Source: an uncultured Nitrososphaerota archaeon (GTDB lineage: Archaea; Thermoproteota; Nitrososphaeria; Nitrososphaerales; Gagatemarchaeaceae). Taken from it: a DNA stretch of 64,000 nucleotides. Both the position numbers and the translations under genes were made by a program. Below the pieces are notes generated by a model that was not told the origin of the DNA, did not search any database, and was given only the letters and a program-made list of their open reading frames with translations. The DNA lies in NCBI GenBank assembly GCA_963703285.1, contig OY969807.1, forward strand, positions 832,001-896,000, in the 5' to 3' direction. Shown in pieces: positions 27,506 to 28,528 of this stretch (position 1 is the first letter of the stretch; every line of letters begins with the position of its first letter).

Positions 27506-27598
27506 TAGCCCGGCTAGGATTCGAACCTAGGTCACCGGCTCCAAAGGCCAGTATGCTTGACCGACTACAATCGGCAAGGTTTCCCTTTCCACCGGGCT
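27506..27598 (-). tRNA. tRNA-Gln(UUG) with 19-nt BHB intron at position 10/11 (27570-27588)
   Basis: spliced 74-nt cloverleaf AGCCCGG-TG-GTGT...CTGGC-CTTTGGA-GCCGG...CTAGG-TTCGAAT-CCTAG-CCGGGCT-A; BHB: helix CGGU/GCCG, bulges GG|A and AU|U, hairpin AAGG-GAAA-CCUU. Confidence 0.93.
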
Positions 27599-27604
27599 TC
27601 CGGG

Positions 27605-28342
27605 CTACCAGGGAGTCGGCTTTACCGAGGTTAAAAACCTGACCAACCTCGAACGCTTCGCACCAATCAGCCCAAATTTCTTCAGAAAGTGAGCCGTATC
27701 TTCCGGCCCATAGAGATACAATCCGTGCATCGTCTTGCCGCGCTTTTCATATTTGTAGGTGTGCGGCCTCAAGTTTAGGGAAAAGAGATATCGCCTCAAC
27801 TCTGCGAGAAGCCTCGGTTCCAGCATCTCTATTGTCAGCCTTACGTACCTCTTATCCTTCACCGACCCTTCAACTGAGAACAGACCGCAGATGAACCCTC
27901 GCAATACAGCATCGCAATCTCTTGCAACATTGGGAATCGAGAGCTTCCCAGTTTTCTTACCAGTTGGGTGGCCCCCTAAGGTTGTGTAGTATTCGTAGAC
28001 AATCCTGCTGCAGTAGTAGATTTCAGACCAGTTTCCGCGCTTCCGAGTGCCGGGCGTAACGTTGAAAACCTTCTTCGTGAGAAAGGCGTAGGCCTCCAAA
28101 ACTTCGGCGTCCCCTTCGGAGAAGTCGATTCTCCATTTCCCGTTCCTAGCCGCGTAATCCCGTGGGCAGATGTGGCCATCTCCGTAAAGCATTCCTAGAA
28201 GCACCCCTAGATCTCGGGTGTTTGGTTCGGGCCACCACACGACATGCTTGGATCCTTTGATTCCGTATCCTTTGCCACGACGCTTCGCAAATGGCGGAGG
28301 TGCTCCAATGGCACTGCCATTAGGACGAGTCACGGTAACCAA
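27605..28342 (-). CDS. two-motif LAGLIDADG homing endonuclease
   Basis: LLGMLYGDG and FICGLFSVEG; visibly lower GC than flanks; start uncertain. Confidence 0.88.
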   Translation of the reverse strand: MVTVTRPNGSAIGAPPPFAKRRGKGYGIKGSKHVVWWPEPNTRDLGVLLGMLYGDGHICPRDYAARNGKWRIDFSEGDAEVLEAYAFLTKKVFNVTPGTRKRGNWSEIYYCSRIVYEYYTTLGGHPTGKKTGKLSIPNVARDCDAVLRGFICGLFSVEGSVKDKRYVRLTIEMLEPRLLAELRRYLFSLNLRPHTYKYEKRGKTMHGLYLYGPEDTAHFLKKFGLIGAKRSRLVRFLTSVKPTPW

Positions 28343-28368
28343 GTCTTCGACAGTATTTCAATGCCACC

Positions 28369-28383
28369 CTGCACCACCGGGCT
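28369..28383 (-). repeat. second copy of the tRNA-Gln 5' end (AGCCCGGTGGTGcAG)
   Basis: 14/15 match to the spliced tRNA 5' end; first 10 nt identical to exon 1 at 27589-27598. Confidence 0.8.
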
Positions 28384-28528
28384 AAGTCGTCCTCGCGCAC
28401 TTTCTTCTGAGCTAGATAAGCCTCTCTAGACTCTGCGCCCCAGATGCTTGATCCCCGGAAGATACCAGTCGAATGACACATGATGTGTGCCAACTATATT
28501 ACCTGCGTCAGGAGCAGAAGATCTTGGC

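Follow-up and report, generated by a model that had tools for sequence, protein, structure and literature searches.

The window, meaning the whole 64,000-nucleotide stretch of DNA analysed, carries on its minus strand a tRNA-Gln(UUG) gene, the only one in the genome. Its 5′ end occurs twice, with an open reading frame (ORF) between the copies (Table 1). The original prediction listed an upstream copy of the tRNA 5′ end, a LAGLIDADG ORF, a partial copy, a second copy, a 19-nt intron and the rest of the tRNA, and each is found where it was placed. The two TATA-like boxes expected near 28418 (TTATCT) and 27637 (TTTTTAA) occupy 28419-28414 and 27637-27631, respectively. ARAGORN with an intron search calls tRNA-Gln(ttg), the Rfam tRNA family matches at 27571-27514 with 34.1 bits, and the 3′ exon is collinear with intron-less orthologues. 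Taken with its cAG, the upstream copy agrees with 14 of the first 15 nt of the spliced tRNA, as had been claimed, the likeness running on to 28369 (nt 15) with one mismatch.

Table 1. Positions of the features of the tRNA-Gln(UUG) locus in the window
Feature	Position	Strand	Remarks
P1, native tRNA-Gln promoter box	28413..28420	-	CTTATCTA; contains TTATCT; upstream of the dead 5′ remnant; in empty-site relatives too
Remnant of the original 5′ exon	28372..28383	-	AGCCCGGTGGTG, tRNA nt 1-12; sole exact copy in the window
P2, putative promoter of the endonuclease gene	28353..28366	-	TGGCATTGAAATAC; conserved box
LAGLIDADG homing-endonuclease gene	27605..28342	-	245 aa from TTG 28342; stop TAG 27607-27605
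P3, putative replacement promoter of the working tRNA gene	27631..27637	-	TTTTTAA; inside the 3′ end of the ORF
Partial copy	27600..27606	-	AGCCCGG, 7 nt, in the predicted 5′ leader
Working 5′ exon, tRNA nt 1-10	27589..27598	-	AGCCCGGTGG, second copy
Bulge-helix-bulge intron	27570..27588	-	19 nt, between tRNA positions 10 and 11
3′ exon, tRNA-Gln(UUG) nt 11-73	27506..27569	-	Rfam tRNA and ARAGORN

Taken alone the 10-nt exon repeat is unremarkable, since a listing of repeats over the 1.1 kb locus returns another exact 10-nt pair (D10). Its significance lies in the identity with the tRNA 5′ end and in its recurrence in related loci. Elsewhere in the genome, the 5′ 7-mer of a tRNA is repeated no more than 2.6 kb upstream in five of 41 tRNAs, about the chance expectation, and the long 'introns' called by ARAGORN look like artefacts.

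Misassembly, which would have undone the prediction, does not appear in the available contigs. Logan contigs from three soil runs tile 27389-28600 with no differences, and a single one of them spans the 3′ exon, intron, second copy and end of the ORF; this agreement is not independent support, because the best-matching sample may be the source sample. Of the sequencing runs in which the locus was traced, none is an RNA run.

The endonuclease gene and its product

The ORF product matches the Pfam family LAGLIDADG_3 (PF14528) with an E-value of 2.3e-8 and 34.6 bits against a cut-off of 22.5. It contains two LAGLIDADG motifs, ..LLGMLYGDG.. and ..ICGLFSVEG.., in which D55 and E158, aligned to the GDG and EG motifs of I-DmoI, are invariant in all 16 sequences. 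An alignment of the intact ORF products, at about 50% identity, retains 48 invariant columns. The AlphaFold model has a pLDDT of 89.1 and a pTM of 0.88, and its top matches in the PDB, obtained with Foldseek, are LAGLIDADG nucleases throughout (E-values down to 2.5e-11), including PI-PfuI, I-Tsp061I and I-DmoI. For I-DmoI and I-Tsp061I the Foldseek TM-scores, normalised to the target, are 0.69-0.74; a sequence profile also relates the protein to I-DmoI (E 0.002). The model predicts a pseudo-dimeric alpha-beta-beta-alpha-beta-beta-alpha fold, as in the monomeric, two-motif LAGLIDADG type. The family is small, with 21 clusters among 5.8 billion.

Most pairs of ORFs are saturated at synonymous sites. 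The sole unsaturated pair gives a dN/dS of 0.09 and, judged on that one pair, the gene is under purifying selection. Two of the ORFs, in genomes G012 and G019, are frameshifted, which may reflect decay or sequencing error. Translation is likelier to begin at a conserved GTG at 28333 than at TTG 28342. A TATA-like box of its own (P2) seems to serve the ORF, and the equivalent of this box in related loci, TGGCGTCTAAATAG, lies at the same place. The spacing from this box to the conserved in-frame GTG is 19-20 nt in G000 (the genome analysed here), G022 and G017; in G019 the box precedes the sequence ACCGTG. At the other end of the protein, ..QPGG.. terminates ten of 15 aligned homologues and represents read-through into the exon copy.

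The short intron and its predicted removal

At the splice sites, exon bases C5-U8 pair with intron GCCG to form the central helix, flanked by the bulges GG|A and AU|U, with AAGG/CCUU as the inner helix. A 4-bp central helix between two 3-nt bulges can be drawn at all 19 intron-bearing loci. All 76 cells of the comparison show this helix paired, and sliding the partner strand reduces pairing to 18-52%. Compensatory changes occur at all four inner-helix pairs. The outer exon-exon helix consists of C4:G12 only, short of the strict hBHBh′ form, and the intron is therefore of the relaxed form, known as HBh′. RNAfold draws the bulge-helix-bulge (BHB) in none of the minimum free energy structures of 13 pre-tRNAs, preferring a continuous exon-intron helix or D-arm pairing, so that support for the motif is comparative only.

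Once joined, the exons correspond position by position to the intron-less orthologues, and removal of the intron would restore a standard tRNA-Gln. Two separate loci in the genome encode a tRNA_int_endo domain above cut-off, which is consistent with a two-subunit splicing enzyme.

Distribution and proposed origin of the cassette

Five of the 60 relatives compared, each a member of this genus, have ORF orthologues of 50-54% identity. The whole set of remnant, ORF, TTTTTAA, exon copy, 17-19-nt intron and tRNA-Gln is present in these five and in G000. A search of genome contigs with a single protein returned nothing, and with the alignment as query it returned four loci. Eleven of 14 metagenome loci are relatives; the exon copy, intron and tRNA-Gln are present in all nine contigs with a readable downstream flank and the remnant in all ten loci with an upstream flank. 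The other three loci (L113-L115) were set aside as probable inteins, being 28% identical, inside long frames and without a tRNA. No close homologue was found in 400 other genomes sampled from the class with a 16-sequence profile at E<=1e-8. The lone match of that search, embedded in a frame of 1149 aa, is likewise a probable intein.

Most of the genomes compared are incomplete metagenome-assembled genomes. A census of the genus gives six full loci, four that bear the intron with the ORF gone or cut to 29 codons, ten without the intron and three not found. The 20 typed genomes are thus ten cassette-derived and ten empty, always at tRNA-Gln(UUG), and in the ten empty genomes the site is precise. 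Intron-bearing genomes number 13 in all, seven of which lack all or most of the ORF; the ORF-less loci retain the ORF tail, promoter, exon and intron. Footprints of the cassette are recognizable in 13 of 13, distributed over four genera of the family (g1, g2, g5 and g6). Among 40 loci of the family we found no 10/11 intron without such footprints. The co-occurrence of ORF, duplicated exon and 10/11 intron is borne out, as is the linkage of the ORF family to tRNA-Gln throughout. Where intron and ORF occur together (six genomic and nine downstream-flanked metagenomic loci) the nuclease gene adjoins the intron and does not lie inside it.

The flanks inform on which parts are native. The P1 box and its spacer also precede the intron-less tRNA-Gln genes of the same-genus genomes G014, G001, G015, G004 and G003, and the promoter region of the remnant in G000 is common to the empty sites of G014 and G001. 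A T-rich box of the P3 type (TTTTTAA; CTTTTAA in G026) is present in 12 of the 13 intron-bearing genomes, including six of the seven that have lost the ORF. The locus of G011 has its flanks and a 37/38 intron in common with the full loci of G017, G019 and G022.

Comparison shows that the cassette was inserted into a gene without an intron, and that its full, ORF-deleted and absent alleles are scattered among close relatives. Our preferred reading, to which we assign a probability of about 70%, is that a selfish cassette of some 0.8 kb invaded the intron-less tRNA-Gln gene and brought with it a replacement promoter, a 5′ exon and the short intron. This was one of two models in the original prediction. 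It fits every comparative test run, with support from the precise empty sites that carry the native promoter and from the ORF-deleted derivatives that keep promoter, exon and intron. Three details needed correction or addition. The left junction falls at about nt 12-16 and not at 10/11, TTATCT is the native tRNA promoter, and the ORF seems to have the further box P2 in front of it.

How would such an element behave? The endonuclease would cut intron-less tRNA-Gln DNA around positions 10-16. Repair off a cassette-bearing copy, with homology provided by the native upstream flank and the 3′ exon, would copy the entire cassette. The carrier would be immune because the intron parts the two halves of the recognition site, and the tRNA would be unharmed because the host splicing endonuclease takes the intron out. 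An intron would be the sole silent means of breaking the target inside a tRNA. After fixation the ORF would decay and be deleted, leaving an orphan non-canonical intron and a foreign promoter.

Exchange between genomes is suggested by several comparisons. Mapped onto an rpoB tree of 19 genomes, the cassette states require eight parsimony changes against a mean of 6.6 for shuffled states, the species tree being rpoB alone with support of 0.2-0.7 at some nodes. The D-loop sequence TCGGTC is common to G000, G005, G009 and G010 and absent from the seven empty alleles of the clade, a co-inheritance with the cassette that amounts to one or two nucleotides. G010 and its empty sister G001 have identical tRNA sequences from the D-stem onward, with a T-arm that occurs in these two genomes only. 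G020 has G7:C66 in its working copy and T7 in its remnant; the latter base recurs in the empty allele of G006, where it is compensated as T7:A66. The scattered states and the D-loop travelling along fit spread by gene conversion. No recent horizontal transfer was seen: cassette DNA is 65-76% identical and rpoB 82-89%, the cassette being the less similar in every pair. The cassette lineages are old, judging by synonymous sites that are mostly saturated.

Could the cassette nevertheless be an immobile relic? It would have entered the family once, its patchiness arising through repeated replacement by intron-less alleles or lineage sorting, and its protein, decaying or domesticated, would no longer be homing. 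The deep divergence of the cassette lineages, the footprints across four genera and the losses (two ORFs frameshifted, seven deleted) suit this account. The conservation of both acidic residues, the 48 invariant columns and the low dN/dS do not, such constraint being unexpected without recurrent homing. Similarly, upstream remnants still match at least nine of 12 positions while the synonymous sites of the ORF are saturated, which fits renewal off fresh targets. The mosaic tRNAs and host-specific T7 remnant need allele exchange anyway, and simple deletion cannot give a precise return to the intron-less gene. We judge this explanation unlikely.

The other model in the original prediction begins the gene at the upstream copy and treats 28373-27570 (804 nt, taking in the ORF, inner promoter, second exon copy and short intron) as a single endonuclease-encoding BHB intron. 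Which of the two 5′ copies works? The upstream copy in G000 is intact through nt 12 and stands behind the native promoter, and its bases C5-U8 are able to pair with GCCG at the 3′ splice site. ORF-encoding BHB introns are known from archaeal rRNA genes, with I-DmoI and I-Tsp061I, both among our structural matches, as examples. The predicted pairing of GCAGGGT with ACCTTGC is indeed possible, with a duplex energy of -16.8 kcal/mol that only 1% of tail shuffles match, but it is not conserved. Shuffled sequences do as well in seven of 11 loci, and there is overlap with the GCCG needed for the central helix. The shorter pairing, CAGGG with CCCTG, involves sequences that are both present; a match of five bases is within chance. 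Moreover, the upstream 5′ site has no inner helix partner. Substitutions within nt 1-10 affect eight of 13 distinct upstream copies (for example TT in place of G9G10 in G022, and T for G7 opposite C66 in G020) and would make a defective tRNA, whereas the downstream exon AGCCCGGTGG is invariant in 19 of 19 loci. This contrast marks the upstream copy as a dead remnant; on comparative grounds the working gene is the downstream one. In addition, the downstream promoter, exon and intron persist in the seven genomes that have deleted the ORF and, in most cases, the remnant as well. The model of a long intron is therefore very improbable.

The upstream copy was also considered as a decayed half or whole tRNA, a reading that was discarded because local alignment past nt 12 is no better than shuffles at six of six loci (p 0.066-0.99).

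Relation to known systems and implications

Collaborative homing is exemplified by the cyanophage endonuclease F-CphI with the psbA group I intron and by T4 mobE with I-TevIII. As in those cases the nuclease gene lies beside an intron that would interrupt the presumed target, and both are inherited together. The differences concern the intron, here of the protein-spliced archaeal BHB kind and situated in a tRNA gene instead of a self-splicing group I intron; the host, a cellular archaeon rather than a phage; and the nuclease gene, which lies within the 5′ part of the host gene. On account of this last feature the cassette must carry its own promoter and 5′ exon. The BHB introns of rRNA genes are similar with respect to the enzyme fold and the use of host splicing machinery. 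In those the ORF is inside the intron, whereas here it is outside a 19-nt intron and the 5′ end of the gene is duplicated.

In fractured genes (PMC2677866) a free-standing homing endonuclease lies between the halves of a split intein. Such genes share with our locus a nuclease gene lodged in a host gene and rescue by a splicing device. There the rescue is protein trans-splicing of the halves; here it would be 5′ replacement and RNA splicing.

A matching architecture is that of tRNA-Thr(GGU) in Caldiarchaeum subterraneum, where Sugahara et al. 2012 (PMC3293823) describe a tRNA fragment, a 1.8-kb insertion and a new intron, and interpret the insertion as an integrase-type or transposable element. 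Both systems display a 5′ fragment with native flank, a same-strand ORF just upstream of the tRNA and a reconstituted tRNA with an extra non-canonical intron, along with intron-free and intron-bearing alleles in close relatives. The repeat in Caldiarchaeum covers nt 1-27, compared with 12-15 nt here, and the ORF of about 271 aa is given no family assignment. The present element measures 0.8 kb, its ORF encodes a LAGLIDADG nuclease, and the protein family is specific to one tRNA. By analogy with that reconstituted tRNA gene, a plasmid or virus might have recombined at an intron-carrying tRNA att site with the LAGLIDADG gene as passenger, but the insertion is merely about 0.8 kb and filled by the ORF and two promoter-like boxes, that gene is the sole ORF with a family match between the repeats, with no integrase and no tyrosine or serine recombinase, and the repeat is 12-15 nt against the 44-bp att repeat reported in PMC3293823, so that integration of this type has very little to recommend it.

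A 2026 preprint on Asgard tRNA introns leaves their mode of arrival open, and our search of the literature turned up no earlier case of a LAGLIDADG gene associated with a tRNA intron in archaea. The present locus points to one way in which archaeal tRNA genes may gain introns, with all stages kept in close relatives: empty target, full cassette, frameshifted nuclease gene, deleted nuclease gene and orphan intron. It is tempting to generalize. Homing-endonuclease cassettes of this kind might be a general route to non-canonical BHB introns in archaeal tRNA genes, the nuclease targeting the intron-less gene and the cassette supplying a 5′ exon and a target-splitting intron, then decaying to an orphan intron betrayed only by a foreign promoter and a small leader repeat. 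The seven ORF-less loci would represent the end state. We offer this extension tentatively and regard it as doubtful in such breadth. If the invasion model is true, collaborative homing would reach beyond the group I introns of phages to archaeal introns spliced by proteins, and the locus would illustrate how a selfish nuclease gains a foothold in a gene where no substitution is silent. Engineers of LAGLIDADG nucleases may also find the enzyme of interest, since it is predicted to recognize 20 bp of a tRNA gene that are conserved and well defined.

One feature falls outside what the cassette model explains. The AGCCCGG copy in the leader is conserved at all 19 intron-bearing loci, with variants AGCTCGG, GGCCCGG and AGCCCGA, and in 11 of 13 minimum free energy folds it pairs with the 3′ acceptor strand. 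It could, as a speculation, serve as an RNA device, keeping the 3′ acceptor strand occupied as the true 5′ strand forms the splice motif.

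Organization of the tRNA-Gln(UUG) locus

All the features listed in the original prediction are found on the minus strand between 28420 and 27506. A LAGLIDADG ORF lies between two copies of the tRNA-Gln 5' end, here called the remnant (upstream) and the working exon (downstream), and with the replacement promoter, exon and short intron it makes up the cassette. The working exon joined to the 3' exon gives a standard 74-nt tRNA-Gln, anticodon UUG, called by ARAGORN with intron search, the 3' part being matched by the Rfam tRNA family. The cassette-bearing gene is the sole tRNA-Gln(UUG) of this 2.25-Mb single-contig genome (G000).

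Features of the G000 tRNA-Gln(UUG) locus, and of the 23S rRNA intron in the extracted locus L002
Feature	Position	Strand	Basis
TATA-like box CTTATCTA	28420-28413	-	read from sequence
Upstream 5'-end copy AGCCCGGTGGTG, then cAG	28383-28372	-	read from sequence
Box TGGCATTGAAATAC	28366-28353	-	read from sequence
LAGLIDADG_3 ORF	28342 (TTG) to TAG 27607-27605	-	conserved GTG at 28333; family match
TTTTTAA box within last ORF codons	27637-27631	-	read from sequence
Partial copy AGCCCGG	27606-27600	-	read from sequence
Downstream 5' exon AGCCCGGTGG	27598-27589	-	read from sequence
19-nt intron AAAGGGAAACCTTGCCGAT	27588-27570	-	read from sequence
3' exon, TGTAG...	27569-27506	-	Rfam tRNA match
23S group I intron and LAGLIDADG-like ORF	L002:981-1356 and L002:1501-2019	-	Rfam, identity

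The 10-nt repeat by itself is within chance for the stretch, where a second exact 10-mer pair exists; its significance comes from comparison with related loci, not from repeat length alone. A 10/11 match between ORF codons at 28302-28312 (minus strand GCCATTGGAGC) and the anticodon-loop region of the tRNA falls short of significance in a comparison with shuffled sequences (p 0.066). The genes upstream of tRNA-Gln differ in relatives, showing the locus to be rearranged in G000, where the neighbour on that side, encoded on the opposite strand (28487-29701, +), is a repetitive 404-residue protein with bactofilin domains (Pfam, 8.2e-14). Downstream of the tRNA a 195-residue ORF (26757-27344, +) has a weak HicB-like match of 17.9 bits, under the cut-off of 21. 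Runs containing the stretch are labelled soil metagenomes.

Filled, empty and degraded alleles

A search of 60 relatives found orthologues of the ORF, with 50-54% identity, in five, every one of them from the same genus. These five and G000 share one order: native-type promoter, remnant, ORF, AGGTTTTTAAC near the ORF end, partial copy, AGCCCGGTGG, a 17-19-nt intron and the rest of tRNA-Gln(UUG). In G012 and G019, two of the five, the ORF is frameshifted. The rpoB gene of G022 (L091, L097-L101) is fragmented into many frames and interrupted by in-frame TGA stops, and the endonuclease ORF of that genome is intact, which suggests sequencing errors in that assembly and hence caution in reading frameshifts in MAG ORFs.

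A metagenome scan gave 14 loci; three weak matches within long frames were excluded and 11 are relatives at 33-56% identity. Exon copy, intron and tRNA-Gln are present in all nine with a readable downstream flank, and the remnant in all ten with an upstream flank. Four related loci in public genomes belong to MAGs labelled uncultured archaeon, Thaumarchaeota archaeon or Nitrososphaeria archaeon. The protein family comprises only 21 clusters, none named, in a collection of 5.8 billion proteins. A C-terminal end, ..QPGG.., is the translated exon copy in 10 of 15 aligned homologues, and the recurrence of such ends and of tRNA-Gln flanks ties the whole family to this gene.

We located tRNA-Gln(UUG) in 40 loci of the family Gagatemarchaeaceae. 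The genus holds six full cassettes, four intron-bearing genes without a full ORF and ten plain intron-less genes; three more genomes yielded no such gene. Where the ORF is absent (G005, G009, G010) or cut down to its last 29 codons (G008), the promoter box is kept together with partial copy, exon and intron. In other genera three genomes have the intron and cassette footprints without the ORF, and the remainder are intron-less at position 10/11. One of the three, G026, retains an ORF tail of about 33 codons; in G032 intron and leader repeat (the partial copy) lie downstream of the native promoter; the third is G035. Among the family loci every 10/11 intron came with cassette footprints, and every ORF with the intron.

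Which of the two 5' copies was there first? Empty, that is intron-less, sites in G014 and G001 read ..GAGACTTATCTAGCTCA..GACTT and then unbroken tRNA, with the same promoter region as that ahead of the 12-nt copy in G000. Another genome, G011, has the upstream gene, promoter, 37/38 intron and downstream flank of the full loci in G017, G019 and G022, and no cassette. The upstream copy is thus the original gene start and the cassette an insertion. The 37/38 intron, an extra canonical one of 24-25 nt in these four genomes (L064, L059 and L062 in G017, G019 and G022; L065 in G011), occurs with and without the cassette and is thus independent of it.

The remnant matches the tRNA at 14/15 positions in G000 and 15/16 in G017, and the decayed G010 remnant matches through nt 15, which suggests a left junction near nt 15-16; similarity of upstream copies past about nt 12 is not significant. 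Upstream copies are unmutated over nt 1-10 in only five of 13 distinct loci. The changes include GG to TT at 9-10 (G022), G7 to T (G020 and two metagenome loci), C5 to G, G6 to A, C3 to A and U8 to C, and would disrupt the acceptor or D stem. The downstream exon is AGCCCGGTGG in all 19 aligned loci. Mutated upstream copies set against an invariant downstream exon, and the lack of an inner helix at the upstream 5' site, lead us to reject a single 804-nt endonuclease-encoding intron, one of two models first put forward, as the general mechanism. The GCAGGGU/ACCUUGC pairing proposed with it shares bases with the central-helix strand and in 7 of 11 loci does not outperform shuffled sequences. Comparative evidence supports the second model, in which a cassette invaded an intron-less gene and brought a putative replacement promoter, a 5' exon and an intron.

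The short intron and the endonuclease

In all 19 loci C5-G6-G7-U8 of the exon pair with the four intron bases ahead of the last two, the 5' splice site lies in a bulge G9 G10 | A and the 3' site in A N | U11, and an inner helix of 2-4 bp closes the intron. The intron partner is GCCG, ATCG, GTCG or GCTG, and pairing is kept in every variant (76/76 alignment cells of the central helix); at each of the four inner-helix pairs, both strands carry changes. Pairing overall reaches 93% and falls to 18-52% once the partner strand is shifted by 1-3 columns. On the outer side, exon-exon pairing amounts to a single pair, making this a relaxed BHB. RNAfold drew the motif in none of 13 pre-tRNAs, and support for it is comparative, not energetic.

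The partial copy, directly ahead of the working exon, is kept in all 19 intron-bearing loci. Of 13 MFE folds, 11 show it paired with the 3' acceptor strand, and its variants (C to U, A to G) mostly preserve that pairing. Its role may be to leave the true 5' strand available for the splice motif; alternatively, it may survive from an older event.

The G000 genome seems rich in tRNA introns (29 of 41 tRNA genes by ARAGORN with intron search), although several of the introns called are very long (maximum 2998 nt) and seem artefactual. The catalytic domain of tRNA-splicing endonuclease is found at two separate loci.

The AlphaFold model of the ORF product (pLDDT 89, pTM 0.88) matches only LAGLIDADG nucleases, namely the intein enzymes PI-PfuI and PI-SceI and the archaeal intron enzymes I-Tsp061I and I-DmoI; sequence profiles match PI-PfuI (5.5e-5) and I-DmoI (0.002). 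The acidic residues D55 and E158, which end the two LAGLIDADG helices, are among 48 invariant columns in 16 sequences. Synonymous sites are unsaturated in a single pair, for which dN/dS is 0.09. A TATA-like box 19-20 nt ahead of the conserved in-frame GTG suggests a leaderless or near-leaderless message.

Signs of spread and proposed mechanism

Allele states were mapped on an rpoB nucleotide tree of 19 genomes of the genus. Cassette-derived and empty states need eight changes, no fewer than shuffled labels (mean 6.6). Intron-bearing G010 is sister to empty G001 (support 0.99), and full alleles group with empty ones in G012 with G004 and G015 (1.0) and in G020 with G018 and G011 (0.95). The tRNA bodies are mosaic. 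A D-loop TCGGTC is common to G000, G005, G009 and G010 and is in none of their clade's seven empty alleles. In the other clade, every one of the five cassette-derived alleles has TGGTC. Starting at the D stem, the G010 tRNA equals that of G001, including a T arm found in those two genomes alone. The G020 remnant has T7, a base that in the empty G006 allele belongs to a compensated T7:A66 pair; the working copy of G020 is G7:C66. Remnants match at no fewer than 9 of 12 positions while ORF synonymous sites are saturated in most pairs, which fits renewal from fresh targets. These are signs of spread by gene conversion. Cassette DNA is less similar than rpoB in every case, which counts against recent movement.

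We infer the following mechanism from sequence comparison. The nuclease would recognize and cut the intron-less gene around positions 10-16, and a filled allele would serve as repair template, homology on the left coming from the native upstream flank plus remnant and on the right from the 3' exon. Copying would bring in the ORF, the two promoter boxes, a new 5' exon and the intron, along with some D-arm co-conversion. The restored gene must not hold an intact target, so the element would need a silent disruption, in a tRNA gene possible only by an intron. Placing the ORF outside the intron would keep the splice motif compact, yet separate gene from promoter; hence the replacement promoter and exon. 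The ORF would be transcribed from its own TATA-like box and decay later, leaving an orphan intron.

The nearest described case is the Caldiarchaeum tRNA-Thr locus (PMC3293823), with a tRNA fragment, a 1.8-kb insertion whose ORF has no assigned family and a new intron, explained there by integrase-type integration. The nearest known mechanism is collaborative homing in phages. Our searches of open-access text turned up no paper that connects a LAGLIDADG gene with an archaeal tRNA intron, and 'homing' and 'LAGLIDADG' are absent from a 2014 review of tRNA introns. The tRNA-Gln cassette appears to be a novel form of homing-endonuclease mobility, and it bears directly on the gain of archaeal tRNA introns.

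The only other LAGLIDADG-like ORF of G000 has 27% identity to the tRNA-linked one and adjoins a group I intron in the 23S rRNA gene (Rfam Intron_gpI, 54.6 bits; G000:C1 about 1593779-1594817, outside the window). Thaumarchaeal rRNA group I introns with LAGLIDADG ORFs are already described (PMC6125680).
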